The notes under the pieces were generated by a model. It was not told the origin of the DNA. It worked only from the letters and a program-made list of their open reading frames with translations, and searched no databases. From the IMG/VR virus record IMGVR_UViG_3300017605_001304, positions 85,156-149,155 of that record: 64,000 bases of DNA; one strand, written 5' to 3'. Position 1 is the first letter of the stretch, and each line of letters opens with the position of its first letter. Position numbers and translations under genes: made by a program. The DNA comes from a virus. Shown here piece by piece: positions 1 through 26,262 of the stretch.

Positions 1-1074
1 CATGTTGGGCTTGAAGATCGGCTCTCCGACGGTCTTGTCGTCGACCCAGCCGTCGGGGGTCCAACCGTCTTTGAAGAGCCGCGTCGCCATGGAGCGCGTG
101 GATTCCTTCTTGTGCTTCTTCACGTCGTCTCCTCGCACGCGCGGTGTGTCGAAGGGGAAGCCCGGCGCGTCGACGTCCCTTGGGGTGAGCTGCGTGACCT
201 TGGCGATCTTCTCCGTGTTGAAGACGACCACCCAGTCCTCGTTGCTCTGCCTCACGTACGCCACGTCGACGCCGTGGTCGACCAGGAACTTCGCGAGCGC
301 CGGACCGGCCTGTCCAGACGCCTGATCCGAGTTCACGAAGACGTTGACGAGGTACTCGGCAGGGAACGGGTTCCCGGAGCGGGCCGCCAGCCGGCGCAGC
401 GAGTCTGCGAGCTCCTGGCGCTGCCGAAGACGTGGGACGTCGCGCAGCCACGCGAGCGTCTCTTCGAGATCGAGGCGAGCGTCCTGCAGCCAGCGCAGGT
501 CCGGAGCCAGGACGACCCGCTGCACGGCACCGCCGCCCTTCGCGTAGCCCTTGGCGGTCGTCCAGCTCGTGGTGAGGTAGATGCCGGGTCCGTGCTCCGC
601 GGCGCCGCGTCGTGCACCACGGATCTCGGGCGGGCCGAACCACCGATGCGAGCCGTGATACAGAACGAGCGGGTCCGTCATGGACGACTCTCGCTGACGC
701 TGGATAGGTATTACCTCGTAATAGCGAGGAGAAGAAATGTCACTCTGCTCGCGGACATACGAGATAGCGATCTCGTCGACACGTGGGAACGTAAGGAGCA
801 CATAGTCTAGTACGCGCGTACGAAGTCGCGGGGCAGACATGAAGCGATTCGAACAAGCCTGCCGAATCCAGCCGCGCTTGAACATGCTCAGCCAAAGCTG
901 GTCTTCCGCCGCCTCAGTGTTGTTCGTGAACTCCACCTGAGATGGAATCTGCACGCCGGTGGCGCGCAGTACGCCTTCGTGTGCATGGACCCAGTCATTG
1001 TGCGAAGTGTCCGGGTCGGTAATTGGGAACACGCAGCCATCCGGGGCGATCCAGGCGCGTCCAGCGTAGGCCAC
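1..1074 (-). CDS. GWIxPDG-domain + H-Y-E class ADP-ribosyltransferase fusion, partial (runs off window edge)
   Basis: Not in the ORF track; translated by hand from GTG 1074 (AGGAG upstream). MAYAGRAWIAPDG...H..W...GWIRQ...QRES|SMTDPLVLYHGS...GPGIYLTT...AKGYA...NEDWVVVFN...KKESTRSMATRLFKDGW. YHGS/GxGIYLT/YA/E pattern is PARP/diphtheria-toxin-like. Confidence 0.75.
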   Translation of the reverse strand, partial: MAYAGRAWIAPDGCVFPITDPDTSHNDWVHAHEGVLRATGVQIPSQVEFTNNTEAAEDQLWLSMFKRGWIRQACSNRFMSAPRLRTRVLDYVLLTFPRVDEIAISYVREQSDISSPRYYEVIPIQRQRESSMTDPLVLYHGSHRWFGPPEIRGARRGAAEHGPGIYLTTSWTTAKGYAKGGGAVQRVVLAPDLRWLQDARLDLEETLAWLRDVPRLRQRQELADSLRRLAARSGNPFPAEYLVNVFVNSDQASGQAGPALAKFLVDHGVDVAYVRQSNEDWVVVFNTEKIAKVTQLTPRDVDAPGFPFDTPRVRGDDVKKHKKESTRSMATRLFKDGWTPDGWVDDKTVGEPIFKPNM

Positions 1075-1084
1075 AGGCAGCTCC

Positions 1085-1621
1085 TTAACCGAGCGTGCAG
1101 TCGATCGGCTGGAAGTCGGCGTAGATCTCGCGCGCCTTGTCCAGCGACCACCCATAATTACTCAGGTAGTTCACGAACGCGCCGAGGTCCAGGAACTTGA
1201 AGCCCGTCACGGAGTGGCAGAGGTTCTGGTAGAGGACGTTCAGTCGCACGACCTGCAGGTAGGCGCGCGCCACGACGCGGCCGAACTCGTTGGGCCGCAG
1301 CGGGCTCACGATGATGCGCGGGCCGTAGACCTTGGTCCAGTCGATCTCTTCGGGCGGCAGGAGCGCCTGCGGGCCCCAGAGGGCGAGGGCCAAGCACTGG
1401 CTCGCGCGGTTGAACTTCTCGACGGCGTCCTTGTCGGGCTTGCCCTGCGCCTTCGGGCGGGTGTCCGGGAGGTCGACGCCGACGAGCTGGATGCGGGCCG
1501 CGCGGTACGTCCACAGGCCCTGGTCGATCATCCCGAAGAACGTCTTGCCGTCGACGACGAACTGCCGGCTCTTCGGGAAGAGCTGGACCTGACAGGCATA
1601 GTTGAACAGGATCCGATTCAA
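1085..1621 (-). CDS. Staphylococcal nuclease (SNase)-fold protein with degenerate active site
   Basis: VVDGKT...IDQG...RIQLVGVDLPD...NEFGRVVA aligns to the SNase pattern DGDT...RLxGIDTPE...DKYGRxLA. Confidence 0.65.
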   Translation of the reverse strand: MNRILFNYACQVQLFPKSRQFVVDGKTFFGMIDQGLWTYRAARIQLVGVDLPDTRPKAQGKPDKDAVEKFNRASQCLALALWGPQALLPPEEIDWTKVYGPRIIVSPLRPNEFGRVVARAYLQVVRLNVLYQNLCHSVTGFKFLDLGAFVNYLSNYGWSLDKAREIYADFQPIDCTLG

Positions 1622-1646
1622 GAAGACCTCCCGTGACGTCGACGCC

Positions 1647-2156
1647 TCACTGACGAAGCGCTGCGGTCACGTGCTTGTTGACGATTTCGGTCGCGTACTT
1701 CTCGTACTGCCGAGCGCGGCGCGCGATGAGCGTCGCTGCGACTCGCCAGTGAGGATGCGGGGGAAGCCGGACGCTCTGCCCGCCGATGACCGCCGCCCCG
1801 CCGTACTCCAGGAGCTTGCTCACGTAGGGCAGGGACCAACCGAGCGCGCTCATGCGGTCCTCGGTGGCGATCGTGACGGTGGTGATCTCCTTCCCGCGGT
1901 GGACATCGGGCAGGATGCCGCGCACGTAGTCGAAGATCGCCTCGCGCCACGCCTTGTCCGAGAGGTAGTCGGTCTCTTCCAGGCTGCGGTCCGCGGCGCG
2001 GGCGGCCTTGGACTGGATGGTCACGAGGCTGTCGCGTGTGACCTTGTCCGCGAGCTGCTGGAGCGACTCCTCACAGCCTTTCCGGAGACCTGCCTCGACC
2101 CTGCGCAGCCACTCCTCGGGCCGTAGCCCTTCCATATTGACGGTGGCCTTGATCAA
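1647..2156 (-). CDS. Putative neck/tail-completion protein (HK97 gp10-like motif)
   Basis: LLEYGG...LPPHPHWR resembles the LEyGT...PPRPfxRP motif; likely TTG start 2156 with GGAG upstream; lies in the neck module. Confidence 0.5.
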   Translation of the reverse strand: MIKATVNMEGLRPEEWLRRVEAGLRKGCEESLQQLADKVTRDSLVTIQSKAARAADRSLEETDYLSDKAWREAIFDYVRGILPDVHRGKEITTVTIATEDRMSALGWSLPYVSKLLEYGGAAVIGGQSVRLPPHPHWRVAATLIARRARQYEKYATEIVNKHVTAALRQ

Positions 2157-2188
2157 GGTATCGTCTCCACACCTTGGAGGAGGTGAAC

Positions 2189-2611
2189 ATGGCCACGCTG
2201 GACGAGCTGCAGAAGGGGTCCGAAGAGTGCTCGGCACGGATGCGAGCGGTGCTACAGGACGAGCTCAAGCGCACGGGCTTTCCACTGCGCCTATGCACCT
2301 ACTACGTGGTCGGCATGACCGGCGCGTGGATCTTCCGGCTGCTCTTCAAGTTCGACCTGTTTGAGAACTTCAAGAGCTTGGCGCTCATCCTGCTGTGTCC
2401 GCCTCTGCTGACCGCGACGCAGGCTTTCCTGTTGAGCTTCATGCTCAAGCGGGCATACCAGCGGGCGCAGGATGCGCTCGGCATCGCGGACAAGGCGGAG
2501 AAGGCGCTGTTCGAGGCGACGCGAGGACTGCTCGCTCAGCGTGAGCAGCTCAAGTTCCTGGTCGAGAGGCTGCGCGATCGCGACGAAGGCGAGGAGTGGA
2601 AGGACGCTTAA
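2189..2611 (+). CDS. Membrane protein (2 predicted TM helices + coiled coil), counter-oriented
   Basis: Strong SD GGAGGAGGTG before ATG 2189; hydrophobic segments YYVVGMTGAWIFRLLF and LALILLCPPLLTATQAFLLSFML; fills the gap between two minus-strand genes. Confidence 0.65.
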   Translation: MATLDELQKGSEECSARMRAVLQDELKRTGFPLRLCTYYVVGMTGAWIFRLLFKFDLFENFKSLALILLCPPLLTATQAFLLSFMLKRAYQRAQDALGIADKAEKALFEATRGLLAQREQLKFLVERLRDRDEGEEWKDA

Positions 2612-3102
2612 CGGCCGTGGCGGTACCGGTCGCAGGCGCACACGATGTGGAACGGGAAGTTGGACGATCCCCAGTATCCGTCCTTGCTGCGCGTCTGCGT
2701 CTTGATCTCATAGAGGTCCGAATCGAAGCGCACGATCGAGCCGACCAGGAACGTCGTGCTCGGCTGCAGGATCTTCTGGTCGAGCAGCAGCACGGTCGAG
2801 AACGTCACGAGCAGCGTCCGCTCCTCATCCATGCCGTACTTCTGCAGGCGGTACTTGCTCGGGCTGTGGTCGATGTGGGCGTGGACCATGATCGGGTGGT
2901 CCCAATCCGGGTCGGACGCCTCGTTGTAGAGCGAGTCGACGTTCGTGTTGCCCCGGTTGAGCAGGATCAACGCGATCTGCGGGTGGTGGCGGATGAACGC
3001 CTCGCGCTGGAAGTTCGCCTGGATCTTGTAGTCCGACGTCTCCAGCAGCTTGAGCAGGAGCTCATTCGCGTCCTTGCCGTCGATCGGCAGCAGGTCGGAC
3101 AT
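2608..3102 (-). CDS. Neck/head-closure protein, T4 gp14-like
   Basis: LQKYGMDEERTLLVTFS...GSIVRFDSDLYEI matches the gp14-type pattern; GGAGG SD; downstream of a gp13-like gene. Confidence 0.65.
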   Translation of the reverse strand: MSDLLPIDGKDANELLLKLLETSDYKIQANFQREAFIRHHPQIALILLNRGNTNVDSLYNEASDPDWDHPIMVHAHIDHSPSKYRLQKYGMDEERTLLVTFSTVLLLDQKILQPSTTFLVGSIVRFDSDLYEIKTQTRSKDGYWGSSNFPFHIVCACDRYRHGR

Positions 3103-3811
3103 GGAGGTCCTCCAAGAACAGACGAGCGGCGAGGAAGCGGGTGGCCTCGTTCACGTGCAATTCGTACGGCCGCTCGGGACGCCCCTCATCGCTGTACGGG
3201 TCGACGTAGAACGACGACTTGCCGGGGTAGTTCGTGATGAAGTAGTCCTTCGCGCGGGACAGATCCTTGCGGCGAAGCTCGTACATGTTCCAGTCCGCCT
3301 TGCGGATCCAGCCGTGCATGCACATGTGGCGCATGATGACGTCGCCCGGGGTCAGTGGCGGCGTCTGATAGGCAGCTAAGAGTTCAGGGTGAACTCGGGC
3401 CCACGAGTCGTGAGACTGCCGGTCAGAGTCGAGCGGGTAGAACGTGTCGTCGGGAGCAATCCAACCTGCCCGAACATTGCGCGACTCGTGCAGGCGCACG
3501 GTCACCGGTTCCACTCGATGTGGAACGCGGCCGTGAAGGTCGAGATTTGCTGCCTCGACTCCTGGATACTTCATGCGGATGTAATCGAGCAAGAGAGGCT
3601 CATACTTCACGTTCAACTCGTAGTCCTTCTTGCCAGCCTGCCGGATCCAGCCCTTCGCGTACAACTGCGTAATGACCGCATCCGTGAAGTCAGGATCGTA
3701 CGGGTCGTCCATGCCGAGCAGCTCGGCCGCGAACTGATCGTGCATGTCGAAACGCGGCTCCAGAGGATGGAAGTTCATGTCCGGGTCGAGCCAGCCAATG
3801 TGGTCGGACAT
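3062..3811 (-). CDS. Protein with two tandem GWIxPDG...GWIR domains and C-terminal tag
   Basis: MSDHIGWLDPD...GWIRQ...RLHES|RNVRAGWIAPDD...GWIRK...NEATRFLAARLFLED; start coupled to upstream stop. Confidence 0.75.
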   Translation of the reverse strand: MSDHIGWLDPDMNFHPLEPRFDMHDQFAAELLGMDDPYDPDFTDAVITQLYAKGWIRQAGKKDYELNVKYEPLLLDYIRMKYPGVEAANLDLHGRVPHRVEPVTVRLHESRNVRAGWIAPDDTFYPLDSDRQSHDSWARVHPELLAAYQTPPLTPGDVIMRHMCMHGWIRKADWNMYELRRKDLSRAKDYFITNYPGKSSFYVDPYSDEGRPERPYELHVNEATRFLAARLFLEDLHVRPAADRRQGRE

Positions 3812-4632
3812 CACTGGCCCTCCAGGAACAGACGCTTCGCGATAGCCTTGGTGGACTCTAGCTGCACGACCACTGACTTGATGCGGCCGCGCCAATCTCT
3901 GAGATCAATCTCGATCGCGCGTACTTGAGGATACTTACGCCGGACATAGTCCACGACGGACTGTTCAAACAAAGCGTAGCACTCGTACTGGTCGCGACTC
4001 ACTTGACGGATCCAGCCGTCGTCAAACATCGCTTGAATCTTCCTGTCGACCCAGTCATCGTCGTCCGAGTCGTGCGCCTCACTGTCGGCAACCCACCCGG
4101 CGTGTCCTTGCGGAGCGGCGTGAAACTGTCCGTTCGGGTCGATCCACCCTTGCACCAGCGATGGCGCGGCTTCAAGCCAGCTCGACGGGAGCTTGAGCTG
4201 CTGGACGGCGCCAGATCGAATCGACGACGTCAACACGATCCACTCCTGCTCTTCGAGCGAGTCCTCGCTGGAGAGGTAGCGGCTGATCGGCAGCCCGATC
4301 GCTGTGCCTTTACGAAGGCGATACAGCTTGCCGGACTTCCAGTGCTTTTGCGCGAACGTCACCGCCGTAGTGACGTTGCTGCTCCAGGACTGGAACACGC
4401 GAGTCGACTCAGACGCGGGATCTACCTCTGCACCACGGTAGAGCGCAGGAACTGGTTGGCCGTTCTCTTTCAGGTCCTGCAGCAGTGCCCGGGCCTCGGC
4501 CCGCAGCTTCCGGCCAGACGCACTCGAAGGTTCTGGGGCCCCGGCGAGCTCGTCCTTGGCGTGCAGCTCGACGGTACCCATGTCGCTGCTGACCCACCGC
4601 CAGACGGCCCGTACCGCTTGAGGGTCGATCAT
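3811..4632 (-). CDS. R-S-E class ADP-ribosyltransferase + GWIxPDG domain + C-terminal tag
   Basis: LYRG...FQSWSS...AVTFA...EEQEWIV is the R / S-x-S / E-x-E triad; linker WLEA; then QGWIDPNGQFH...GWIRQ...LESTKAIAKRLFLEGQ. Confidence 0.75.
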   Translation of the reverse strand: MIDPQAVRAVWRWVSSDMGTVELHAKDELAGAPEPSSASGRKLRAEARALLQDLKENGQPVPALYRGAEVDPASESTRVFQSWSSNVTTAVTFAQKHWKSGKLYRLRKGTAIGLPISRYLSSEDSLEEQEWIVLTSSIRSGAVQQLKLPSSWLEAAPSLVQGWIDPNGQFHAAPQGHAGWVADSEAHDSDDDDWVDRKIQAMFDDGWIRQVSRDQYECYALFEQSVVDYVRRKYPQVRAIEIDLRDWRGRIKSVVVQLESTKAIAKRLFLEGQ

Positions 4633-4991
4633 CCCAACCCCTCCAAGAACAGACGCTTGGCGATGGCCCGTGTAGACTCGTCCATGTTGATGACGAGTGT
4701 TTTCGGAGGGCCAAGAAAGTCAACTACATCGATATTAATTCGATGCACATTGGGGTGTACTCGACGTACGTAATCAATGACCCACTGCTCATACGCCGCG
4801 GTACACTCATAATCGTACAGTCCCGCTTGGCGCACCCACCCAGCCTTTAGCATCCGAACCGTCTCAGCGTTAACCCAAACCAGAATCTGATCGTTGTCCG
4901 GGGCTCCTGGCCTGTTGTCTATCACCCACTCGTCGTGGCCATTCAGTACGCGGTGGAACTCGCCGTCAGGATCAATCCAGCCCTGTGCCAC
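4629..4991 (-). CDS. Single GWIxPDG-domain protein with C-terminal tag
   Basis: MAQGWIDPDGEFH...GHDEW...GWVRQ...DESTRAIAKRLFLEGLG. Confidence 0.8.
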   Translation of the reverse strand: MAQGWIDPDGEFHRVLNGHDEWVIDNRPGAPDNDQILVWVNAETVRMLKAGWVRQAGLYDYECTAAYEQWVIDYVRRVHPNVHRINIDVVDFLGPPKTLVINMDESTRAIAKRLFLEGLG

Positions 4992-4994
4992 GGC

Positions 4995-6023
4995 TTACCC
5001 CCACACAGGCGGAACGGCCGGCGCGAGCGAGCGCAGGTCATCTTCCAGCCGCTGCCGGTCTTGCCGGCTCTCGTCTAGAAGCTGCGCTGCGTCGAGCGTC
5101 AGCGTTCCACCGGGGCTCGGGACCGTCCCGCTCCACTTGCCGCGGGTCCGGCCGAGGATCTCCTTCGCGACGGCAAGTGCGTATTGTCGGAACCACGCGT
5201 GGTGCGAGACCGGGATCTGGTCGATCGCGACGTCGGCGTAGTAGCGGTACGAGACGTCGTAGAGGCTCGGGTCCTGAGAACCCGAGGGCCCGCCGAGCGA
5301 GATGTAGAGCGTCCCGTTCTCAACTCGCCAAGTCCACTCGGGCTCGACCGACGCCTGCCTACGCACTGTTTCCCAGTGCGACTGCGAGAGCACGAACTCG
5401 TCGAACTGGATCTGCGGCCAGATCGGGAACTCGCGGCCGAAGAACGGGAACGACGTCAGGTTCAACTGCTGCTTGCGAACGAACTGCACGTCCGCAACGC
5501 CGCGTGAGCCGACGCCCGGCAGCGGGTAGGCGAAGATGCCGGCGCTCAGCACCACGGTGTCCGACAGCTCGCGGGCGCACCAGCGGTTGTACACCGTGAG
5601 CGCTTCGTTCATGCACGTCGCGAGCTGCCCGCTCGTGAGCTCGACGGCCACGGACGGGAAGCCCAGCATGTTGAAGACGTACTGCCGGATCGAGTCGGAG
5701 TTGACGCCGCTCGCGATCGGGTATTCAGCCGTCAGCACGGTCGGGAACGGATCAACCTGGATGCCGAGCTGGTTCGCGTACCACTTCGCCGTGATCCGGC
5801 CCTGCACATAATTGCTGGCGTCGATGTACGTGTAGTAGAACGTCCCCTGCGCGTCCGAGCCTTGCACGATCGAGACCGAGGAGTCGGTCCCGAGTGCCCG
5901 GGTCTCAGTCACCGTCACGGCGCCCGCCTGGAAGATCTGGACCGAGAGGTCCTGATCGACCACGTCGCCGAGCCCGGTGTCGTCATTGACGAAGCGGATG
6001 TCCAACAGAACTGGAAGCGCCAT
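4995..6023 (-). CDS. Head-tail adaptor/neck protein, T4 gp13-like, with extra N-terminal beta domain
   Basis: IRQYVFNMLGFPSVAVELT...WFRQYALAVAKEILGRTRGKW...PGGTLTLDAAQLLDES...LEDDLR...PPVWG. Confidence 0.85.
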   Translation of the reverse strand: MALPVLLDIRFVNDDTGLGDVVDQDLSVQIFQAGAVTVTETRALGTDSSVSIVQGSDAQGTFYYTYIDASNYVQGRITAKWYANQLGIQVDPFPTVLTAEYPIASGVNSDSIRQYVFNMLGFPSVAVELTSGQLATCMNEALTVYNRWCARELSDTVVLSAGIFAYPLPGVGSRGVADVQFVRKQQLNLTSFPFFGREFPIWPQIQFDEFVLSQSHWETVRRQASVEPEWTWRVENGTLYISLGGPSGSQDPSLYDVSYRYYADVAIDQIPVSHHAWFRQYALAVAKEILGRTRGKWSGTVPSPGGTLTLDAAQLLDESRQDRQRLEDDLRSLAPAVPPVWG

Positions 6024-6026
6024 CGC

Positions 6027-7538
6027 TTATCTCTCCCGTCCAGCCAGACGAAGGCGTGTGTCGCCATGGACGCGGCCGCGGATCGCGACGTCGAGCCCCA
6101 GCGACGCCGCTCGATCCGTCACGAAGACGCCCAGGTCGCAGCCGAGCTGCAGGCCGCCGCGCTGGATCACGGCCAGATCGAGGCCGAGCGTGAGGACGGC
6201 GTCGAGCACCTTGACCGCGGTCGCCGTCGCGAGGTCTGTCGTGCTCTGCGCTCGCACGACGCTGGTGAGGCCCAGGGACACGTGGTCGGTCTCGGCGATC
6301 CCCGCGCTGGTCGCGAGGTCCGCCGTGAGCTCCGAGGCCACGAAGAGGTCCAGGACGACCTGCTTGAAGCTCGAAGTTCCGATCCAGGTCGAGAGGCTGA
6401 GGTTGATCGTGCGGTTCCCGGTCCCGACGACCAGGGTGTCCGAGGACAGGTTGATCGCGTGCCCGACCGCCACTCCCAGATCGGTCAGGAGCGTCGTCAG
6501 GAGCGTCTCCGCGACGCCCGTCGACGTCGACAGGTTCAGCACCGGTGCGCCCTTGACCACGGCCGTGGTGGCCACGGAGAGCGTCTTCGGTGCGCGAATG
6601 GCTGCCATCGTCGGCAGCGATAGCTGGAGGCCCTGAGCGACGGCCGTCGACAGGTTGAGCGAGAGGGTCGGCGCGAGCTGGACGACGGTGTCGAGGCCCA
6701 GGAACGTCGTGAGCGAGCTCTGAGAGACGAGCGTCGTGAGCCCGAGGCTCAGGACCGGCTGCACGTACGTCGTCGACGTGAGCGCGAGCGTACGCCCCAT
6801 GCTCGCGACGGCCGAGGTGAGGCCGAGCGACGCCGACTGCGGGAAGACGACCAGGGTGTCCGCGCCGAGCTGCAGGGCGATGGGCGCCTGCACCGCGGTC
6901 TTCGTCGCCATCATCACGAAGCGCGACAGCGCCACGGCGGTCGAGAGGGACAGAGTCGACGACGTCGAGAACGCCACCGCGACGTTCGTCCACAGGAACG
7001 TGAGCACGTCGGGGTCGCTGATCGCGGCGTCGGCGCCGAGCAGCGACTGCCCGCTAGTCATCCCGAGCGAGATGGCGGTGTCGAGCGAGAGGTTCTTCGT
7101 CCGGTTCGTCTGCTGCACGGCCACGCCGGTCGGCACCGCGGAGAACCGCGACGCCTGCACCGCCGAGGTCAGCAGCAAGAGCTGGTTCACGTTCGCCACG
7201 GAGATGGCCGTGCTAGTCGCGAGCGTCTTGAAGTACGTGCCGACGATCGTGTCGACCAGCAAGGTCTGCGCGACGTCTGCGAACTGGACCGCGGTCGTCT
7301 CCCCCAGCGACAAGGTCAAGGGGGTTTGCACCGCCGCCTGTGACGTCAGATTCAGGGTCAGATTCGAGAACTGAACCGCGTTGGTGAGGCCGAGGTCCAG
7401 CGTCGTGTTGGGCATCACCACAACGGTGTCCTCGCTGAGCAAGAGGGACGTCTGAGCCAGCACGCCGAGATCAAGACCCAGCGGCAGGGAGACAACCGTG
7501 CCTCCGAGAAGATTGTTCTGCAGGATCGGCAGAAGCAC
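6027..7538 (-). CDS. Low-complexity L/T/S/V/A-rich putative virion fibre/structural protein
   Basis: Degenerate short LSLxTxVxV repeats, almost no aromatic or charged residues; structural module. Confidence 0.55.
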   Translation of the reverse strand: MLLPILQNNLLGGTVVSLPLGLDLGVLAQTSLLLSEDTVVVMPNTTLDLGLTNAVQFSNLTLNLTSQAAVQTPLTLSLGETTAVQFADVAQTLLVDTIVGTYFKTLATSTAISVANVNQLLLLTSAVQASRFSAVPTGVAVQQTNRTKNLSLDTAISLGMTSGQSLLGADAAISDPDVLTFLWTNVAVAFSTSSTLSLSTAVALSRFVMMATKTAVQAPIALQLGADTLVVFPQSASLGLTSAVASMGRTLALTSTTYVQPVLSLGLTTLVSQSSLTTFLGLDTVVQLAPTLSLNLSTAVAQGLQLSLPTMAAIRAPKTLSVATTAVVKGAPVLNLSTSTGVAETLLTTLLTDLGVAVGHAINLSSDTLVVGTGNRTINLSLSTWIGTSSFKQVVLDLFVASELTADLATSAGIAETDHVSLGLTSVVRAQSTTDLATATAVKVLDAVLTLGLDLAVIQRGGLQLGCDLGVFVTDRAASLGLDVAIRGRVHGDTRLRLAGRER

Positions 7539-7584
7539 GGTTGTCCCCTAGGGGCTATGTCATGGGCATGAACGCCACAGAGGA

Positions 7585-9210
7585 TTAGAAGTAGGTCGTA
7601 ACGACGACCATGCCGTGACCGCCCGCGCCTCCACCCTGCGACCCAGACGCGGTGCCGCCACCGCCGCCACCGCCGCCAGGGAATCCGCCGTTACCAGCGT
7701 GCGTCGCAGAGTCTCCCGCGCACGCACCGGAGCCGCCATGCGGGAACCGCGTCGAGTCATTGCCGTTCGCACCGGCCGCGGCCGCGGGAGCTGAAGCACC
7801 GCCGCCCATGCCGGGACCGGAGTTGACGCCAGTGGTCGAGCGTCCGCCCGCACCACCACCGCCGCCGCGCAGCGACCATCCGTTGTTCGCGGAGGTCGTC
7901 CCAGTATCAACATCCGCGCCGGATTCTCCGCCGCCACCGCCCCATTCTGCAGGTGAGCCACCGACCGGGGACAGCGTGCCGGCGCCGCCACGACCCCCGC
8001 CGCCACCGCTGGCCGGGATGTTGTTCGCCGCCGGGACCGTGTAGAGATCCGAACGGCTCGTGTTGGCGACGAGCGCCGTGAGTCCGCGACCGGCTCCACA
8101 TCCGCCGTTCCCACCATCCGCAGAGACTGCGCCGGTCGCGGCCGTTCCGGCGACGCGGCGCGCCGACGTCAGCGGGCCTTGCCCACCCTTGTCAAACTCC
8201 GAGAGCACGCCCGCATTGCCGTTCGTGCCGTCCGTATTCGCGGTCGCGGCGCCGCCCTTGCCGGCGTGAACAGTCACCGACGTGCCGAGGTCCGTCGGGT
8301 CGAACCACGCCTCGTCGTACCCGCCACCACCGCCACCACCGCCGCCCGCCGCTGTCACCGCATTGCGACCGGCCGATCCGCTGCCACCGCCATCGCAGAT
8401 CTGCACGAAGCACTTCCGCGCGCCCGGCCCCGGGCGCTGCCAAGTGTCATCGAGATCTGCAGCGGAACCGATGAAGAACTGGGTTTCGCTAGGCCGGGGC
8501 GCCGGGAAGTCGCGGTTCCCGCTGATGGTCGGGAGGAAGTGGATACGCGTCGCCACCTCGACCGTGGAGCTGGCCCACGTCATCGTCGTGGCGGCGGTCC
8601 CTGCCGCCACGGCCCGCGTGCCGCTGACCATGACGAGGCCGCCGCCCGTGCCGTCCGTCGTCGATCCGTCGAACTGCTCGGTGATGCTCGTGAGGTTGGA
8701 GTTCGTCGCGGCCGACGCCTGCCCACCGGTGGCGTCGATGGCATGCGCCCAGAGGTCGACGACGAGCGTGTTGTCGATCCACGTCTGCGTCACGGCCGAT
8801 GAGGCCGACGTCGACGCAGTGAACTTCCACGACTGCCCGCCCAGGTGGAACGGATCCCCGATGTTCGGGCAGCCATGGACCGAGAACATGAACCCGTAGG
8901 TGTGGTCACCTGCGTCGGTAAGCGTCGGCGCAGTCTCGCTGCCGCTGTCCCGCTTCCAGAAGATCGAGAGCTTCGTGCTGGCGGCAGTCGCCGCCGCACC
9001 GATCCCGTTCTGCGGACCGATCTGCTTGTACCCGGCCGGCGCCGCGTAGTTGGCGTCGTTCGAGCACTGGATCACGAGTACGAGAATGTCGTCGGCATCG
9101 TGCACGCTAGGCAGCGTCGCCGTCGGCACCCCGGTCGAATGGAACTCCGCGCCGACGCTCGCGATCGTAGGGAGAGTCGGCGTGCGGCTAAGGAGAGGAT
9201 ACAGCGGCAT
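7585..9210 (-). CDS. Glycine-rich virion structural/fibre protein
   Basis: N-terminal beta domain followed by GGGGGGG/GGAGG tracts ending GGHGMVVVTTYF, typical of phage Gly-rich minor tail domains. Confidence 0.65.
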   Translation of the reverse strand: MPLYPLLSRTPTLPTIASVGAEFHSTGVPTATLPSVHDADDILVLVIQCSNDANYAAPAGYKQIGPQNGIGAAATAASTKLSIFWKRDSGSETAPTLTDAGDHTYGFMFSVHGCPNIGDPFHLGGQSWKFTASTSASSAVTQTWIDNTLVVDLWAHAIDATGGQASAATNSNLTSITEQFDGSTTDGTGGGLVMVSGTRAVAAGTAATTMTWASSTVEVATRIHFLPTISGNRDFPAPRPSETQFFIGSAADLDDTWQRPGPGARKCFVQICDGGGSGSAGRNAVTAAGGGGGGGGGYDEAWFDPTDLGTSVTVHAGKGGAATANTDGTNGNAGVLSEFDKGGQGPLTSARRVAGTAATGAVSADGGNGGCGAGRGLTALVANTSRSDLYTVPAANNIPASGGGGGRGGAGTLSPVGGSPAEWGGGGGESGADVDTGTTSANNGWSLRGGGGGAGGRSTTGVNSGPGMGGGASAPAAAAGANGNDSTRFPHGGSGACAGDSATHAGNGGFPGGGGGGGGTASGSQGGGAGGHGMVVVTTYF

Positions 9211-14522: not shown

Positions 14523-15959
14523 TTACGGGTTGAGGACCTGACCCGTCGAATACATCTTGTTGTTGATCGCCTTCACACCGTACTGCGTCATCGCGCCCTT
14601 GCGCCCGATGAAGTCATCGAGCACAACGGTCGGGGTCGTGAGGAGCGGGATGTACGGCGCGTACACGTAGCCCGCGTCCATGAACGAGTTGCCCTTGAAG
14701 CCCATCACCCACTTGTCGACCGGGAAGTTCGGGTCCTTGAAGCAATCGAAGCGACCGAGGAACTTGCCCATCTCGACGATGCCGGTGTTGCTGTGCGTCG
14801 CATACGCATTCGAGTCCGGCTTGAACTGCGGATGGGACTCGATGACGTTCGCCACCGAGGTACCCATGACCACGAAGTTCGCCTGCCCGCGCTTCGTCGC
14901 GCTGTAGATGAGCTGGCTGCCAGTGATGAACGCATCCGCGAGCGTCAGCTTGTGCTCGGCGTAGCTGATGTTCGCCGGGGTGGCCTTGTCCCAAAGGACG
15001 TTGCCCGCGCCCGCGAAGTTGTAGAGGTCGTTGATGATCTGGCGGTCGATCTCGTACTTGATCACCTCGGCCAGAACACCGACCAGCTCCGCTTCCGCAT
15101 CCAGGCCGTGGAGCGCCTGGAGGTTCTGCGAAGCCTCAAGCGACCAGTTCGCCTTGAGCTTGCGGACCTCGGCCGTGACGCTGGAGCTCGTGAGCTGCAG
15201 GTCGATGCCGGGGATTGCCGTGTTGGCCTCAGCGTCGTAGTCGTAGGTGATGAGGAGGCTCGTGGCGGTACCGCCGGTGCTCCAACCAACCGAGGCAATC
15301 GCGCCGGTCGTGTAGTTGACCGTGCCCGCGGTGATGCCCGTGCCGATCAGGTTGCCGTTGCCATCATCCGTGAAGCTCGTGGCCGTGGTCGCACCGACGA
15401 TCGTGCCGGACAGCGTGCCCGGCTTGATCGGAAGCTGACCAGAGCCCCACGTCGCGGACTGAGGCGTGGTACCGGCGAAGGTCACCGTCAACTGGGGAAC
15501 GGTCGCCGAGCTGTAATACTCGGAGTTCACCGGCCCGGTCCGCGAGTCGAAGAAGGTCGAGCCCGCGGTCTGGTTGCCCTTGGTCAGGCTCAGGATGAAG
15601 TCGAGATAGAAGACCAGCGAGATCGGCCCGGACATCGGCTGGATCGACACGATCTTGTTCGCGATGAGCTCGGGATAGATCGCCCGAACCAGCGGGAACG
15701 CGAACTTGTCGAACGAACCAATGTTGAGCAGCTTGGTCGTCTCAGTCAGCGGTCGCTCGCCCGTCAGCGTGACGTTCGGCCGCGTCTTGAGCATGTGCTG
15801 TCGCTGGTTCTCCAGAAGGAGCGCCGTCCACGGGCGGGAAAGCCCGTCGAGGCCCTTCATGTAGCGCGACCACTGAGCAGACTCGGCCAGACGCTCACCC
15901 GTGGTGATCATCTCGCCGTGCTGCTCTTCATTGAACTCCTTCAGATCGGGAGTAAGCAT
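14523..15959 (-). CDS. Major capsid protein, T4 gp23 family
   Basis: TALLLENQ; PLVRAIYPELIANKIVSIQPMSGP; RKLKANWSLEASQNLQALHGLDAEAEL; EIDRQII; GFKG..MDAGYVYAPYIPL; TQYG. Start may be TTG 15977 or ATG 15959. Confidence 0.95.
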   Translation of the reverse strand: MLTPDLKEFNEEQHGEMITTGERLAESAQWSRYMKGLDGLSRPWTALLLENQRQHMLKTRPNVTLTGERPLTETTKLLNIGSFDKFAFPLVRAIYPELIANKIVSIQPMSGPISLVFYLDFILSLTKGNQTAGSTFFDSRTGPVNSEYYSSATVPQLTVTFAGTTPQSATWGSGQLPIKPGTLSGTIVGATTATSFTDDGNGNLIGTGITAGTVNYTTGAIASVGWSTGGTATSLLITYDYDAEANTAIPGIDLQLTSSSVTAEVRKLKANWSLEASQNLQALHGLDAEAELVGVLAEVIKYEIDRQIINDLYNFAGAGNVLWDKATPANISYAEHKLTLADAFITGSQLIYSATKRGQANFVVMGTSVANVIESHPQFKPDSNAYATHSNTGIVEMGKFLGRFDCFKDPNFPVDKWVMGFKGNSFMDAGYVYAPYIPLLTTPTVVLDDFIGRKGAMTQYGVKAINNKMYSTGQVLNP

Positions 15960-15977
15960 TGGTTTCCGAAGCTCCAA

Positions 15978-17612
15978 TCATGCACGCCGCAAAAGGCCCT
16001 TGATCATGTCGCGCTTCGTCTCCGGCTTCGGAGACGCGTCTTCGGTCAGCGGCTTCCGGTCCTGGGGACCATTGGGCAGCGCCGACTCGAATGCGGGCTG
16101 ATGCGGAATGCTCGGGTCATTGTTGTCACGCGGCTGCGGGGCCAGCTTGTGCTGACCACACTGTGGGCAGGAGATTTCCTGCGCCGTGGTTTCGGCCTCG
16201 GTCACATAGTGGCAGCCTGCACAGGCGACCTTGTGAGTCGAAACCTTCGGCTTGGCGTCGGTGGCAGCGCTCTCCCGCTTGGATCGGGCAGGGTTGAACG
16301 CCTTGACCTGGATCTCGATCATTTCATCGAGTTCAGCGATCGTCTTCTGCTTACGGAGCAGTGGCTCCACCCGTCGCAGGGAGGGGTTGTCCGCAAGAGC
16401 TTCACGAATGCGGCGCAGCAGCTTCGCTTCGTCGTTGCGCTTCACGAAGGCTTCGAGCAGAGACAGCGCCGAAGCGCGCTCCGTCCCGACCTTGTGCAGC
16501 TCCTTCAACTTCTCCGCGAGCTTCTGCTCGACCTTCCGCGTCCCGTCGATGAGCGCAGCCGCGAGCTTCTTGGCCGCCTCGAACTTGCCCTTCGGGACCG
16601 AATCGGTCGACTCCACCAGTCGCCGCTCAAGCTCGGCGATCCGGCGGTCGGCAATAGACAGCCGTGCAAACGTCTCGGCCAGGAGCTCCGAACCGGCCGA
16701 AGCCGTAGTCGCGCCCGAGAACGAGCCGTTGACGGTGACAGTGTTGGCAGAACTGGTCGTGACCGGCGGAGCAATGGCCGCCTGAACGCGCGCCGCGAAC
16801 GGCGCCGCCGTCTCGTTGTACGAGCGATCCCGTGCCGCAGACGCGGCCGTACGGGACGCCTGGATGACGGCCAGGGCTTCGTCACCGTCCTTCTTCAGGG
16901 ACGGCTGCTGCCCGAGCAGGGTCTGGATCTTCGACTCAGACTCAATGAGTTCGAGAACGAACTTGTCGAGCTGCTTCGTGTCCGTGGTGGCCAGGGCTTC
17001 CTTGATCTCGTAGGCCCGGACCTGAAGGCGCCGGATCTCCGCCTGCTTTGCGTCCATGCTGGACTCCATCTTGTAAGGACCGCTCAGACTCTCCGCGAGC
17101 CGCGGGTACGCGCCTTCCACGCTCGGGGTGGAGACGAAGTCAAAGGTGTCGAGCTTGAAGCTCGCTTCCTCGACGTACTCGACTCCGTCGCGCATGACCG
17201 ACGTGCCGCGCCCTCGCGAAGAGATCCCCACGGGAACTCCGGCGCGGAACAACTTCTGAAGGTGGATGCCAGGGACCGTGTCGAGGACGAGTGCTTCGCC
17301 CTGGACTTCGTCTCCCTCCAGCCACAGCTTCTTGACAATGTGTGAAACTTCGAGCAGGTGGGTCTGACCGCTGTCGGGATGCTCCACGACGCCGGTCATG
17401 CCGTTGTTACCCATCCGCTTCTGCTGCTCGGGGTTGTTGAGCTGGTTCTCCCACAAACCCCGGGTGTAGACCCGGCCGTTGCCGTTCTTCACCCCGCCCA
17501 TCTGGAAGCGGCCACGCACCGTCATCCAGTTGTTGTTATCGACCTTCTCTTGAAGGACTGTGAACTTGGCGGGAGCAAGATGTTCAATGAGAGGCTTGAG
17601 GTCGCCGCTCAT
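15978..17612 (-). CDS. Prohead protease (T4 gp21 family) fused to coiled-coil scaffold with Zn ribbon
   Basis: KNGNGRVY, GVVEHP (His), VGISSRGRG (Ser), DFVSTPSVEGAY; long helical C-terminal half; CAGC...CPQC; TAATG coupling at 17612. Confidence 0.9.
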   Translation of the reverse strand: MSGDLKPLIEHLAPAKFTVLQEKVDNNNWMTVRGRFQMGGVKNGNGRVYTRGLWENQLNNPEQQKRMGNNGMTGVVEHPDSGQTHLLEVSHIVKKLWLEGDEVQGEALVLDTVPGIHLQKLFRAGVPVGISSRGRGTSVMRDGVEYVEEASFKLDTFDFVSTPSVEGAYPRLAESLSGPYKMESSMDAKQAEIRRLQVRAYEIKEALATTDTKQLDKFVLELIESESKIQTLLGQQPSLKKDGDEALAVIQASRTAASAARDRSYNETAAPFAARVQAAIAPPVTTSSANTVTVNGSFSGATTASAGSELLAETFARLSIADRRIAELERRLVESTDSVPKGKFEAAKKLAAALIDGTRKVEQKLAEKLKELHKVGTERASALSLLEAFVKRNDEAKLLRRIREALADNPSLRRVEPLLRKQKTIAELDEMIEIQVKAFNPARSKRESAATDAKPKVSTHKVACAGCHYVTEAETTAQEISCPQCGQHKLAPQPRDNNDPSIPHQPAFESALPNGPQDRKPLTEDASPKPETKRDMIKGLLRRA

Positions 17613-19177
17613 TAGCGGCGCCTCAGTGACTCGACCCCCGTAGCCGGGGGATCGTTCATGCGGGCGGCCCATTCTCCCCACTTGCCGAAGTTCGCCTTCC
17701 GGCGCGGGGGACCGTTCGCCGCCCAGTGCTTGAATACGTCAGCGTTGAAGCGCGGGTTCTGCCGCCGCATGACTTCGCAAATCGCGTTGATTGTTTCCGA
17801 CGTCGCCTTGCTCGTGTGCAAAGCAACCGCGATTTCCTCGAAGTCCTTTTTCGAGAGGGCTTCCTTCTTCGGCTTGTTCTTATCGCGGATCGCCTTGAAG
17901 TCGATTTGCTTGCCGGTCCCCTCGCAGTCAGGGCAGTTGTCGCGGTGCACGCCCGGCTTGCAGTGACATGGCTTGCCCGTCTTCGGCTGGTAGGACTCGA
18001 AGGCCGGGGGCTTCTTCTCTTCAGGCTCGTCGCCATCCGGTTCCGCCTGGGGCTCCGGCGGCTCGTCACCCATCTCGTCCCCGTCCGGCTCCTCTTCGGG
18101 CGGCGGAGGCTGCTCCTCCAGGAAGTGCCCGAAGTCCTCAGCAAGTCCCTGGTCGTCCAGGAACTTGGTGATCAGCTCCATCGCATAGTCGTCGTCTGCG
18201 CCCGTCTGCGACTTGTAGTCGTCGACGATCGCAGCCGCCGTGATCGTTTCCTCGACGTCCGGAGGTCCGTCGGAAGGCGGATCAACTTCCGGCTCTTCGG
18301 TCGGCAGCGGCGGAGCGTCCGCATCTTCACCCAGCGCGGCGAGCACTCGCTCCAGCGAGGCGTTGCTCTCCAGCGCCGCGATCGCGCGGTCGATCTTCTC
18401 GTTCAACTTGACCTCTCCGCCGTAGGCGTTGAGCAGGTCCTTGGTCCACTCAGCCTGAGTGGACGGGATCTGCAGCGTGTTCGCCACCGACTCGATCGTC
18501 TGACCAGAACGGAACAAAGCCAAAGCCTGTCCGACCTGGGCGATCGAGAGCCCGACGCGTGCCGCAATCTGAGCGGCCATGATCGGCGGGTCGTATTCGA
18601 GGGACGCCTCTCGCAGCGCGTTCCCAGACTTAGGCACGAATGCCTCCTTTCTGTCCTTGGGAGGTGTCCGACCACGGCTCTTCGCGTATTCGGCATCGCG
18701 CCGCATCAGCTCCTTCCCAACAGCCGCCTGCTTTTTCTTCTGAGCAGGCGTCGGGGGCTTCTGCTGCTTCAGCGTTTGCATCGACTTCTGGAACGCCTGA
18801 CTGGGACGCACGGGCCACGTCCCACTTGCCGCCCTAGAGCCCCGAAGGGTCACGGGATCCCGCACAATGTGGAACGCTTTGTAGTAGAAGTTGTCAGGCC
18901 ACTGTCCGCGGTAACCGAAGTTCGCGCGGATGTAGCGTTGCAGGTAGCGCAGACCAGCGAGTCGAGACACGTGGCGCGCCAACCGGACAAACTTCTCGTA
19001 GACCCACCAGTGGACGGGGAACCAGTAATCCTTGCGACGCTTGCTGCCGAGGGTGAGGATCAACTCACCGACGTCGAGCGGATCAGACTTCGAGTAGGTG
19101 AGGCTCTTGATCCCCATCCACTCAGGTTGATCTCCCAGGATTTCAAGCAGCCCCTTCTCGGGGTTGACTGTGAGCAT
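17612..19177 (-). CDS. Modular head-associated protein (KTSC-like, HTH-like, acidic linkers, Cys cluster, KKDFxxIA...NPRF module)
   Basis: IKSLTY...ELILTL...VYEKF...YLQRYIR (KTSC-like); IAARVGLSIAQV; CHC...CPDCEGTG; KKDFEEIA...QNPRFNADVF. Confidence 0.6.
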   Translation of the reverse strand: MLTVNPEKGLLEILGDQPEWMGIKSLTYSKSDPLDVGELILTLGSKRRKDYWFPVHWWVYEKFVRLARHVSRLAGLRYLQRYIRANFGYRGQWPDNFYYKAFHIVRDPVTLRGSRAASGTWPVRPSQAFQKSMQTLKQQKPPTPAQKKKQAAVGKELMRRDAEYAKSRGRTPPKDRKEAFVPKSGNALREASLEYDPPIMAAQIAARVGLSIAQVGQALALFRSGQTIESVANTLQIPSTQAEWTKDLLNAYGGEVKLNEKIDRAIAALESNASLERVLAALGEDADAPPLPTEEPEVDPPSDGPPDVEETITAAAIVDDYKSQTGADDDYAMELITKFLDDQGLAEDFGHFLEEQPPPPEEEPDGDEMGDEPPEPQAEPDGDEPEEKKPPAFESYQPKTGKPCHCKPGVHRDNCPDCEGTGKQIDFKAIRDKNKPKKEALSKKDFEEIAVALHTSKATSETINAICEVMRRQNPRFNADVFKHWAANGPPRRKANFGKWGEWAARMNDPPATGVESLRRR

Positions 19178-24089: not shown

Positions 24090-24608
24090 TCACTTGATCT
24101 CGGCGTGCACCGAGTAGCGGTTGAAGGCCGGGGATTCCCAGCTCATCGTAACCGAAAGGTTGGTCGGGATGGGGTTGCCTGTGCAGTCGGGGTTGTTCTT
24201 GCCGACCGCGAAGGTCGCGGACTTGGCGTCCGCTTCGAAGGCGTCAGCCTGCAGCGCCTCCATCGGGCAGAGGCCACGCGCCGCCAGGATCGCCACGGCC
24301 TTGCCGTACGCGTAGCGCGGGTTCTGGACGAAGGCTTGGCCGTCGAGCCCCGCGTTCAGGAAGGCGAGCTGCAGGCCCTGCTTGATCGCGTCGGGGAGCG
24401 ACTCCTGCGGAGGCGTCGGCTCGTTGGCACGCTTGTCCTTCTCCGGCGTCGAGAGCTTGTCGCCCTTGCCGTAGTAGTTCTGGTCGATCTTCTGGCTCAG
24501 GTTCGGCTTGTCCTTCGCCTTCTTGGCGTCGTTGGACACGGCGTCCGTCAGGACGAGACGTTCGACGAAGTTCAGGACGATGTTCGCCTTGGGCCCGATC
24601 TCACTCAT
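24090..24608 (-). CDS. Hypothetical protein
   Basis: GGAGG SD lies in the upstream gene end; GC3-biased. Confidence 0.65.
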   Translation of the reverse strand: MSEIGPKANIVLNFVERLVLTDAVSNDAKKAKDKPNLSQKIDQNYYGKGDKLSTPEKDKRANEPTPPQESLPDAIKQGLQLAFLNAGLDGQAFVQNPRYAYGKAVAILAARGLCPMEALQADAFEADAKSATFAVGKNNPDCTGNPIPTNLSVTMSWESPAFNRYSVHAEIK

Positions 24609-26262
24609 GTCGACCTCCCTGCAGACCCCGGAAGAGTCGGGCTGCGATGTTGCGGACGGACTCCTTGACCGGTTCCTTGTCCTTGTACAGCAGCGGCTGC
24701 TTGCCGGACTTCACGGGCGCGTCCTTGGCCGCTTGCCGATCCACGGTATCGATCTCGACGTCCGGCCCGTACTCCTGGTGGATCCAGTCCTCGATCTCTC
24801 GATCGTTGTAGTCGTAGCCATCGGGCGTCTTGACCGTCTCGAAGTCTTCCCCGAAGACCTCGCGGCCCAGGAAGCGACCATCCTTGGTGTAGATGAAGCG
24901 GATCTCGGGCTGCGAGTCCTGCTTAAAGAACTCGATGTGGCCTCGTCTATCTTTATAGGATCCGCGGTCCTTCAGCAGGTGCCAGTAGATGTTCTCGGCA
25001 GCGAAGTCCTTGATCACCTTATCGTTGTCTTCCCACTCGTTAGGAATACTCTCCATCGTCGGGTGCTGACCGTCCAAGAAGAACCAGTACGTCGAGGTGT
25101 TGTCCGCGCCCCAAAGATGTTCATGCTCACAATCTTGACAATAGTTCTGCCCGCAGTATTCGCAGTTATAGATGTCCTCGGGATCAAAGCTGTCCCCGCA
25201 GCCAGAGCACTCCTCCGTCTCATGATCCACCCAGAATCTCCCGCCGTGCGCATCCTGAATCCGCCGCTGCTGCTCCGACGTGAAGTCGTCCCACTCCAGC
25301 CCGCTGTCGTCCGACAAGCCGTTGACGCGGTTGGTGCAGAAGAGGTCCGCCAACTTCGCCAACGAGTCTTCGTCGTTGGGTTCCTTGTTCGACGGGCCAC
25401 GGATCTGCACCGCGCTCTTGTCGTCGACGTCGACCGTGATCAGCGGCCTCCAGATCTTCGTCTTCGGGTCCAAGGCCCGGTACGAGTAGAGCGTGCCCTC
25501 CCCTGCTCCACAGTGGTGCATCAGCTCACCTTCGAGATCCGACTCGCGACAGTCTAGGTGCACCCAAGCCGAGCCGTCGTCGTACTCAAGCACGATCTCG
25601 CCGAGATCACCCGCCTTGTTCGCGGACCGGATGTCGCCGCGTAGCTGAGCAGCGTACTTCTCACGGAGCTCGGCGACCCGATGTATGAGGCTTGCGGGGT
25701 TGGCCGCCTTTACGTCGAAGTTGATGTTGTCGAGGAGCGTGTCGATGTCGATCTTCGTCTTTTCCGCGATCTCGCCCAGTCCGCGGAGCCCGTCCTGCAG
25801 GTTGTCCTTCACCTGATAGAAATCAAGTGGCATCCAGTCCGCGTTCCACCCAAGGGCCACACAGAGCTTTGCGTAGTAATACTGCGTCGCGCTCACGATC
25901 GCCCGCCCTGCGGGATCTTCGCGGTTTTCCTTTGTGGAAGGCAGCGCGTGCCCGAGAATCTCTCGATACCGGTTCCACGCACCGAGGAGCATCCAACGAA
26001 ACGCCCAGATCGAGCGGTCGTAGCGCTTGAATTGCAGGGCCAGCTCTTCGCCGAGTTTGTAGAGCTGATCAGGATCCGAGAAGATGTTCGCGTTATTCGC
26101 CTGTCGCTTACGGAACTCACTCTCAGGCGGCAGTGCATCGATCATCGCCTTGATCTTCTGCACATGCTTCACGTACGTTGCGAACATGGCGCGCATGTCC
26201 GCCTGCGGGTTACGACCCTCGGCCAGCAGGCGCACGAAGATGTCGTAGACCCGAGCCATCAA
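24601..26262 (-). CDS. PcfJ-like domain + Zn-finger protein with C-terminal tag (paralog A)
   Basis: LEGELMHHCG...YSYR...PLITV...QIRGPSN (PcfJ pattern); CSGC...CEYC...CQDC; KESVRNIAARLF. Confidence 0.7.
   Translation of the reverse strand: MMARVYDIFVRLLAEGRNPQADMRAMFATYVKHVQKIKAMIDALPPESEFRKRQANNANIFSDPDQLYKLGEELALQFKRYDRSIWAFRWMLLGAWNRYREILGHALPSTKENREDPAGRAIVSATQYYYAKLCVALGWNADWMPLDFYQVKDNLQDGLRGLGEIAEKTKIDIDTLLDNINFDVKAANPASLIHRVAELREKYAAQLRGDIRSANKAGDLGEIVLEYDDGSAWVHLDCRESDLEGELMHHCGAGEGTLYSYRALDPKTKIWRPLITVDVDDKSAVQIRGPSNKEPNDEDSLAKLADLFCTNRVNGLSDDSGLEWDDFTSEQQRRIQDAHGGRFWVDHETEECSGCGDSFDPEDIYNCEYCGQNYCQDCEHEHLWGADNTSTYWFFLDGQHPTMESIPNEWEDNDKVIKDFAAENIYWHLLKDRGSYKDRRGHIEFFKQDSQPEIRFIYTKDGRFLGREVFGEDFETVKTPDGYDYNDREIEDWIHQEYGPDVEIDTVDRQAAKDAPVKSGKQPLLYKDKEPVKESVRNIAARLFRGLQGGRHE

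Follow-up and report, generated by a model that had tools for sequence, protein, structure and literature searches.

Two predicted ADP-ribosyltransferases of different catalytic class share an unannotated domain in the neck module of a distant T4-like phage

We analyzed a 64,000-nucleotide window of the IMG/VR virus record IMGVR_UViG_3300017605_001304 (G000:C1:85156-149155; record length 149,155 bp, estimated completeness 70%) and found at its left edge two genes for predicted ADP-ribosyltransferases (ARTs) of different catalytic class, each joined to a copy of the same unannotated domain. One product, a protein of 273 amino acids (RSE273), belongs to the R-S-E class, and the other, encoded by a gene that runs off the edge of the window, to the H-Y-[ED] class; the common domain is called GWI here after its GWIxPDG motif. 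As judged from sequence comparisons, all three modules are beads in giant phage polyvalent proteins elsewhere, and in the present phage they are unbundled into small proteins. Given the motifs, family conservation, and fold models, we consider it highly probable that both proteins are ARTs and likely to be active; the complete mechanism proposed below, in which they travel in the virion, is one that we favor only slightly.

A first-pass annotation, made from the nucleotide letters, had described virion-borne ARTs of opposite classes in the neck module, sharing a domain and released as free domains by the prohead protease. The opposite classes, the neck location, and the shared domain held up under the analyses below, whereas release by the protease did not.

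The R-S-E and H-Y-[ED] transferase domains

RSE273 carries the annotated motifs LYRG (R66), SWS (S82-W83-S84), and EEQE (E127-E128-Q129-E130), all upstream of a GWI part that reads GWIDPNG...GWIRQ...DYVRRKYP (residues ~155–273). An AlphaFold2 (AF2) model computed from 37 sequences had a predicted local distance difference test (pLDDT) score above 90 across residues 1–150 and placed R66 in strand 1 (64–68), S84 in strand 2 (80–84) ahead of a helix (87–96), and E128-Q-E130 just before or at strand 5 (130–134). In an exhaustive VIA comparison with 48,161 PDB chains, which is independent of Foldseek, ranks 1–16 were all R-S-E ARTs (Z 6.1–8.6, 117–144 residues aligned), headed by Vis (Z 8.6), C3bot2 (8.2), ART2.2 (8.2), and ExoS (8.0), while H-Y-E ARTs reached just Z 3–4; on VIA re-alignment, Vis and ExoS both scored Z 8.6 and Tre1 Z 8.1. 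The top 50 Foldseek matches in the PDB were nearly all ARTs, but with weak E-values (0.05–0.4), and the matches in BFVD were annotated as phage Alt-like RNA-polymerase ADP-ribosylases and MuF-type minor capsid proteins. The split beta-sheet ART fold expected of the protein is thus present in the model.

Searches with the single sequence were uninformative: RSE273 matched nothing in Pfam at E-values up to 10 and nothing among PHROGs or PDB sequences, tblastn against the phages found no match, and a word-index search with the whole protein, over limited length windows, returned only itself. An exhaustive HMMER search with residues 1–155 recovered 88 cluster representatives, with E-values down to 2e-18. 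Most of them contain the region as a module of ~120 residues within long proteins of up to 5,177 residues, together with ART-PolyVal, GNAT, NUDIX, or 2H phosphoesterase domains or, in one arrangement, a complete portal protein (PF04860, E 3e-92). The relatives are unnamed; 37 family members compared with Pfam matched no ART family, and the family profile matched none of the PDB sequences. The catalytic positions are nevertheless kept across 90 aligned sequences (R66 in 88, S/T84 in 89, E128 in 86, and E/Q130 in 87), as are L64, G67, W83, A90, and W131. Unlike in the usual pattern, the first Glu of the E-x-[EQ] pair, E128, is the invariant one. From the fold model and the alignment we conclude that RSE273 is a putative compact R-S-E-type ART of a family outside Pfam coverage.

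The second ART lies in an open reading frame (ORF) at positions 1–1074, whose adjacent DNA we retrieved. The ORF is genuine, as had been claimed, and extends 311 nt past the window (G000:C1:84844-86229). Its best start is a GTG at 1074, with AAGGAG 7 nt upstream, giving a protein of 461 amino acids identical to the public gene call (P0003); residue numbers below follow a 488-residue translation from an upstream ATG (P0001). The order of elements agrees with the annotation: the GWI domain is followed by LYHGS (H167), GPGIYLT (Y193), GYA (Y204), and NEDW (E306-D307).

Residues 162–222 match the Pfam family PF18760 (ART-PolyVal) with an E-value of 2.8e-4 and 22.1 bits, below the gathering score of 31.2 and over profile positions 6–64 only; a match to DUF3990 (E 1e-3) is likewise below gathering. 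A word-based search found 26 metagenomic relatives, 42–61% identical over ~185 residues, many of which have NUDIX, GNAT, or another, canonical ART-PolyVal domain as a fusion partner. PF18760 was matched in 9 of the 10 homologues tested (E 6e-3 to 3e-29), including proteins consisting of the domain shared with the edge protein alone. Two homologues exceeded the gathering score: P0026, with 39.8 bits on the shared domain, and P0010, with 102.8 bits, its highest-scoring segment being a distinct ART-PolyVal domain at the N terminus. In a third (P0004) the match is near full length, covering profile positions 4–134 of 140. The best reading of these sequence relationships is that the domain represents a divergent sister subfamily of ART-PolyVal.

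The model of this domain (pLDDT ~90) shows the ART fold with His, Tyr, and acidic residue on strands 1, 2, and 5, in line with the class proposed for it: H167 lies in strand 1 (163–169), Y193 in strand 2 (192–195), and E306/D307 in strand 5 (306–311). The VIA matches (Z 5.2–8.1) comprised chain B of the cyanophage A4 pre-ejectosome (Z 8.1), diphtheria toxin (7.2), and AcrIF11 (6kyf; 6.3), followed by cholix, ExoA, and PARPs. With both folds carrying intact, family-conserved catalytic residues, the assignment to opposite classes, R-S-E and H-Y-[ED], was upheld.

The C-terminal ~100 residues of the edge protein (residues 385–488; L007:14844-15150) form a further domain, modeled as strand-strand-helix-helix-strand-strand-strand (pLDDT ~85 over residues 390–480). 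It opens with GWTPDGW, echoing GWIxPDG, and a comparison with PDB folds gave no informative match.

The folds might be catalytically dead, as is the VIP2-like domain in anthrax lethal factor, and have been reused to decorate the neck or head. Lethal factor is indeed among the fold matches of RSE273 (rank 17), and the Pfam score of the H-Y-[ED] domain falls short of the gathering threshold. Against this stand the 86–89 of 90 relatives that keep the catalytic R, S/T, and E-x-E/Q, and the invariance of H167, Y193, E306, and D307 in 17 sequences that are otherwise 40–60% different. Such conservation indicates selection for catalysis, and we regard pure decoration as very improbable.

The GWI domain and its terminal helix

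The similarity between the GWI domains of the two ART proteins, noted in the first-pass annotation, is beyond chance. In BLASTP, the copy in the edge ORF matched a neighboring 249-residue protein (GWI249) with an E-value of 8e-10 and RSE273 with 8e-7, and a 120-residue protein (GWI120) matched the C terminus of RSE273 with an E-value of 3e-32 and 50% identity. A hidden Markov model (HMM) delineated two copies in GWI249 (domain E-values 1e-52 and 6e-47, self-inclusive). Five copies of the ~120-residue domain are thus spread over four genes: GWI249 has two, whereas GWI120, RSE273, and the edge protein have one each. The public gene call for GWI120 (P0119) and the corresponding Atlas record are a 74-residue truncation starting at residue 47; the full frame, from the GTG at 4991, includes the motif GWIDPDG.

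GWI has no match in Pfam or PHROG. A word search with the GWI profile among 5.8 billion proteins, for relatives of 65–233 residues, returned only self matches, and an ESM Atlas search with GWI120, whose own Atlas model is poor, gave no usable feature match. A degenerate two-motif DNA pattern run over IMG/VR hit six loci, three of which encode collinear GWI relatives; two of these relatives sit at about residue 900 of proteins of 2,099 and 2,115 residues that bear LPD38, a Pfam marker of polyvalent proteins. A locus search with alignment A6 yielded just two loci, both previously found.

Both ART proteins also carry the short tag that had been reported for them. The pattern E[SA][STV][RKN]xx[AM][ATK]RLF, in which the E-[SA] that opens the helix is invariant, was matched six times across the 149-kb record and in none of 50 shuffles. 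In the edge protein, however, the tag is internal rather than terminal (residues 351–361, with 127 residues after it), and the edge ART domain therefore sits between the GWI core and the tag. In an alignment of eight sequences, the tag (ESTRAIAKRLF) aligns with the helix that follows the last two strands of the GWI-like domain in the giant proteins, which makes the terminal helix of GWI the best interpretation of the tag. The view of the tag as a free-standing portable peptide is weakened by this alignment to a domain-internal helix and by the dual role of the codons that follow it. Only the three tandem genes have an LE[GD] ending, and there the codons CTG/TTG GAG G.. supply the following gene with its Shine-Dalgarno sequence, GGAGG. 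As these codons double as a ribosome-binding site (RBS), the terminal Glu needs no protease explanation; the arrangement points to tandem duplication of a unit made up of a gene and its junction.

Two of the six tag copies belong to a pair of paralogous, very acidic proteins (24601–26262 and 26259–28028, minus strand; 553 and 589 residues, net charge about −30), which share with the GWI proteins both a DY..Y(G)P.V motif and the ES.R..A.RLF helix at their ends. Their PHROG and Pfam comparisons gave weak FYVE-type zinc-finger matches only, and the label "PcfJ-like" considered for them was dropped on that ground.

The claim that the prohead protease would free the ART domains was not borne out. 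The phage has a protease of gp21 type (window 15978–17681, minus strand; phrog_207, E 2e-38) adjoining the gene for the major capsid protein (MCP), and the MCP has PLTE/T where T4 gp23 has its LTE/A maturation site (slash, point of cleavage). A long coiled-coil region resembling a scaffold and a CxxC...CxxC zinc ribbon form part of the protease polypeptide, and its gene and that of the MCP are not separated by a scaffold gene. The linker strings annotated as WLEA/ and QRES/ do exist in the two ART proteins, but nothing marks them as cleavage sites. A search for the T4-type [LI]xE, which is the consensus of T4 gp21 and may differ from the specificity of this protease, found no site at the N termini or at either ART/GWI linker; [LI]xE occurs internally only, at residues 54–56, 126–128, and 221–223 of RSE273 and 203–205 of the 461-residue protein. 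Since T4 Alt, which is packaged, is processed by gp21 at both termini (PMC9026906), C-terminal trimming at the invariant E-[SA] of the tag is possible by analogy.

The GWI-only genes on both sides of RSE273 raise the alternative that GWI is a cis-acting inhibitor or immunity module that silences a toxic ART until cleavage or ejection, with GWI120 and GWI249 as extra antidote. ART toxins are usually paired with immunity proteins, and the fold matches include such pairs (Tre1-Tri1, 6dre; TreX-TriX; ART-ARH). A single domain would, however, need to neutralize two ART classes with different active-site architectures, its relatives occur in giant proteins without a Pfam ART domain, and its C-terminal element is borne by the two acidic proteins, which are not ARTs. 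We consider an inhibitory role improbable.

Insertions in the neck module and a proposed route to the host

The record has a GC content of ~65%, and its MCP (window 14523–15977, minus strand) is T4 gp23-like (phrog_138, E 3e-62). The MCP matched 2,604 phage records, every one at <60% identity, with 28–39% in the 12 best listed, and a blastn search with window positions 1–8000 had no match in a set of 50,697 phage records. The virus is a distant T4-like myovirus with a high GC content.

All genes at window positions 1–9200 lie on the minus strand (Table 1). In 5′ to 3′ order they encode a fibre-like protein of 541 residues, a 503-residue protein, an Ad2/gp13-like adaptor, GWI120, RSE273, GWI249, p164, p196, p178, and the edge protein. 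Outside the window follow genes for proteins of 387, 231, and 266 residues, the last weakly gp15-like, an ORF of 113 residues, the tail sheath (Pfam E 1e-10), and the tail tube. The ARTs are thus surrounded by neck and tail genes, and because the adaptor, the gp15-like gene, sheath, and tube are nearby, the annotated term "neck module" is a fair label. The T4 late promoter TATAAATA has no match in the window, and scans for sigma-70 promoters and terminators gave background levels only.

Table 1. Features at the left edge of the window (window coordinates; residues of the edge protein numbered as in P0001)
Feature	Position	Strand	Basis
Ad2 / T4 gp13-like head-tail adaptor, 342 aa; upstream border of insertion A	4995..6023	minus	phrog_211 E 2e-13
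GWI120, 120-aa protein, single GWI domain and tag (4647-4679)	4629..4991	minus	BLASTP and HMM
RSE273, 273-aa predicted R-S-E ART-GWI protein	3811-4632	minus	motifs, fold model
Predicted R-S-E ART domain, aa 1-150 of RSE273	4183..4632	minus	AF2 model, VIA, HMMER
GWI domain and terminal helix, C-terminal half of RSE273; tag ESTKAIAKRLF 3826-3858	3814..4170	minus	BLASTP, alignments, tag regex
GWI249, 249 aa, tandem GWI copies 3446-3811 and 3065-3445; tag 3116-3148 after copy two	3062..3811	minus	HMM
p164, neck-module gene between insertions	2608-3102	minus	G001 homologue
p196, neck-module gene between insertions	1647-2237	minus	
p178, neck-module gene between insertions	1085-1621	minus	G001 homologue
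GWI core, N terminus of edge gene, aa 28-156, GTG start 1074	688..1074	minus	BLASTP E 8e-10, RBS
Predicted H-Y-[ED] ART domain, ART-PolyVal-like, aa 157-345	121..687	minus	Pfam sub-threshold, homologues, VIA
Internal tag helix ESTRSMATRLF, aa 351-361	73..105	minus	tag regex
Tag-end codons (..CGT CTG TTC YTG GAG GRN) with GGAGG	4632-4660, 3811-3840, 3102-3130	minus	RBS for RSE273, GWI249, p164

A related phage, represented by a 63-kb IMG/VR contig (G001) whose MCP is 48% identical, has the gene order p503-Ad2-p164-[204 aa]-p178-[127 aa]-p266-sheath-tube-p313-p660 with identities of 28–45% (Ad2 44%, p164 44%, p178 34%), and its Ad2 and p164 genes are separated by 4 nt. No GWI match was found across the 63 kb, and no GWI or ART gene lies within its neck order. 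As the same order is kept there without these genes, the comparison indicates that the neck block is otherwise conserved and that two accessory cassettes have been inserted into it here. Cassette A (window 3062–4991) holds GWI120, RSE273, and GWI249; cassette B (window 1–1074 and ~3.2 kb outside) holds the edge gene and two genes, p387 and p231, for proteins without assigned function. The GC content at third codon positions is 0.74–0.77 in the three GWI genes scored versus 0.81–0.95 in the conserved neighbors.

The 387-residue gene beside the edge gene (L007:13684-14847, minus strand) contains the PARP-like strings HFT / GGYNFA / ENQYIF and a Cys-rich tail. Its candidacy as a third ART was not supported: hhalign against an ART alignment gave a probability of 0.7%, Pfam and PHROG had no match, and its Atlas neighbors were weak and mixed (Tpt1, Tox-ART-HYD1, AbiGi, and Tad6).

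Virion delivery is the best reading of these data because of family context and published generalizations. In another phage, a portal protein carries the R-S-E module as a fusion, and the structure closest in fold to the H-Y-[ED] module is that of an ejection protein resolved within a capsid. The adaptor, sheath, tube, MCP, and prohead protease give the cassettes a late or structural setting. Head packaging has been predicted for phage ARTs whose genes lie among morphogenesis genes, and the published predictions are based on contexts of this kind (PMC9503650, PMC5512222). That both proteins are virion-borne is, by this analogy, plausible. The genes would be transcribed late together with the structural genes, as their tight same-strand packing suggests, and their products would be assembled into the head or portal region, with GWI acting as a common incorporation or anchoring module. 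The proteins would enter the host with the DNA, following the example of T4 Alt, of MuF and portal fusions, and of the ejection proteins of podophages, and each ART would then use NAD+ to ADP-ribosylate host targets, leading to host takeover or a disabled defence. If the chemistry is typical of the classes, the R-S-E enzyme would carry out protein modification of the Arg/Asn type and the H-Y-[ED] enzyme a reaction like that of diphtheria toxin and AcrIF11.

Several observations weigh against this scenario. No MuF domain or T4-type N-terminal capsid targeting sequence was recognized in the proteins. The GWI domain models poorly (pLDDT <60), so that any function assigned to it is a guess only, and the existence of GWI-only proteins of 120 and 249 residues means that it may be an effector rather than an adaptor. 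Finally, on a 55.7-kb ENA scaffold (L008), an H-Y-[ED] ART homologue is encoded beside a NUDIX+ART-PolyVal protein, a GNAT/YunG protein, RecA, and a 2OG-Fe(II) oxygenase; judging by the gene content, this cluster is a multi-effector region and not obviously structural.

Some of these observations would also fit unpackaged proteins, that is, late cytoplasmic ARTs acting in the producing cell, where they modify host or phage proteins or exclude superinfecting phages. In that case GWI would serve to recruit substrates or to regulate the enzymes, and the neck position would reflect a permissive insertion site and late timing only. Besides the lack of a recognized packaging domain (MuF, portal, or capsid targeting sequence) and the homologue among non-structural genes, the cassettes are accessory, being absent from the related phage, and ModA and ModB of T4 are ARTs outside the virion (PMC5512222). 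Yet members of each of the three module families turn up again in proteins of the polyvalent, portal-fused, or ejection type, and the finding of one terminal element on six otherwise different proteins, two of them in the head-gene region, is more easily explained by a shared destination. We rate the cytoplasmic alternative as unlikely, though one to be taken seriously.

Returning to virion delivery, one specific form of it would make GWI and its terminal ES-x-R-x-x-A-x-RLF helix a hitherto unrecognized, portable head-loading or anchoring module for at least six cargo proteins, both ART classes included. We offer this tentatively and put it well short of an even chance; if true, the module could also be used to package foreign proteins into a non-model phage.

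It is well established that phages encode ARTs among their morphogenesis genes, with injection as the predicted fate (T4 Alt; Iyer et al. 2017, 2022), and ARTs as such are therefore unsurprising here. What the locus adds is, first, a compact R-S-E ART family with ~90 cluster representatives and no Pfam model, found inside polyvalent-type and portal-fused proteins; second, an unannotated domain occurring five times in one phage and also in LPD38-bearing giants, a candidate for a shared incorporation module; and third, the resolution of the effectors, by comparison with a related phage, into two discrete insertions within a conserved neck block. With both classes side by side in one phage, the locus is a compact system for asking what the targets of each class are.

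Comparison with known systems

RSE273 resembles T4 Alt in belonging to a T4-like myovirus and in having an R-S-E ART fold with Arg, Ser/Thr, and E-x-E. It differs in its far smaller domain (~150 residues, with only 18 residues between R66 and S84), in matching no Pfam ART family, and in the invariance of the first rather than the second Glu of E-x-[EQ]. It is fused to GWI, has no N-terminal capsid targeting sequence, and is encoded in the neck block instead of the baseplate region. Its relatives lie within giant polyvalent-type proteins, whereas ARTs of the Alt/VIP2 type are stated not to do so (PMC5512222).

The edge protein shares with ART-PolyVal, defined as H-Y-D by Iyer et al. (PMC5512222), and with AcrIF11 the His on strand 1, the Tyr on strand 2, and an acidic pair on strand 5, E306-D307 here and D115/E116 or D146/E147 in AcrIF11 (bioRxiv 10.1101/2024.08.26.609590). 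Its domain is longer than the 140-position ART-PolyVal profile, with ~185 residues and a helical insert (residues ~226–299), and it is flanked by the core and the terminal helix of GWI in a 461-residue protein, not in a giant polypeptide. Its closest structural match is to residues 1418–1606 of chain B of PDB 9k3a, which is gp27 of cyanopodophage A4 by its residue numbering (Z 8.1, 155 residues aligned, root-mean-square deviation 4.1, 14% identity). According to the passages of PMC12002296 consulted, gp27 is resolved inside the capsid, on the portal, and those passages do not mention an ART-like domain for this region. At >1700 residues, this podovirus ejection protein is unlike the edge protein in size.

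The closest parallels in organization are the polyvalent proteins (Iyer et al. 2017) and effectors fused to MuF or portal proteins. They combine several effector classes drawn from the same module families in a late or structural context, and their predicted role is delivery with the DNA, as proposed here. In the present phage, by contrast, the modules are spread over four small genes in two cassettes (120–461 residues, one to three domains each), and only their relatives are giant. Pfam found no MuF (PF04233), MPTase, or LPD domain in the four GWI proteins, and PHROG likewise found no MuF. The common denominator is instead the repeated, unannotated GWI domain. If GWI does serve as a loading module, its role would parallel, from the C terminus, that of MuF or the capsid targeting sequence of T4, with separate cargos taking the place of one giant polyvalent protein.

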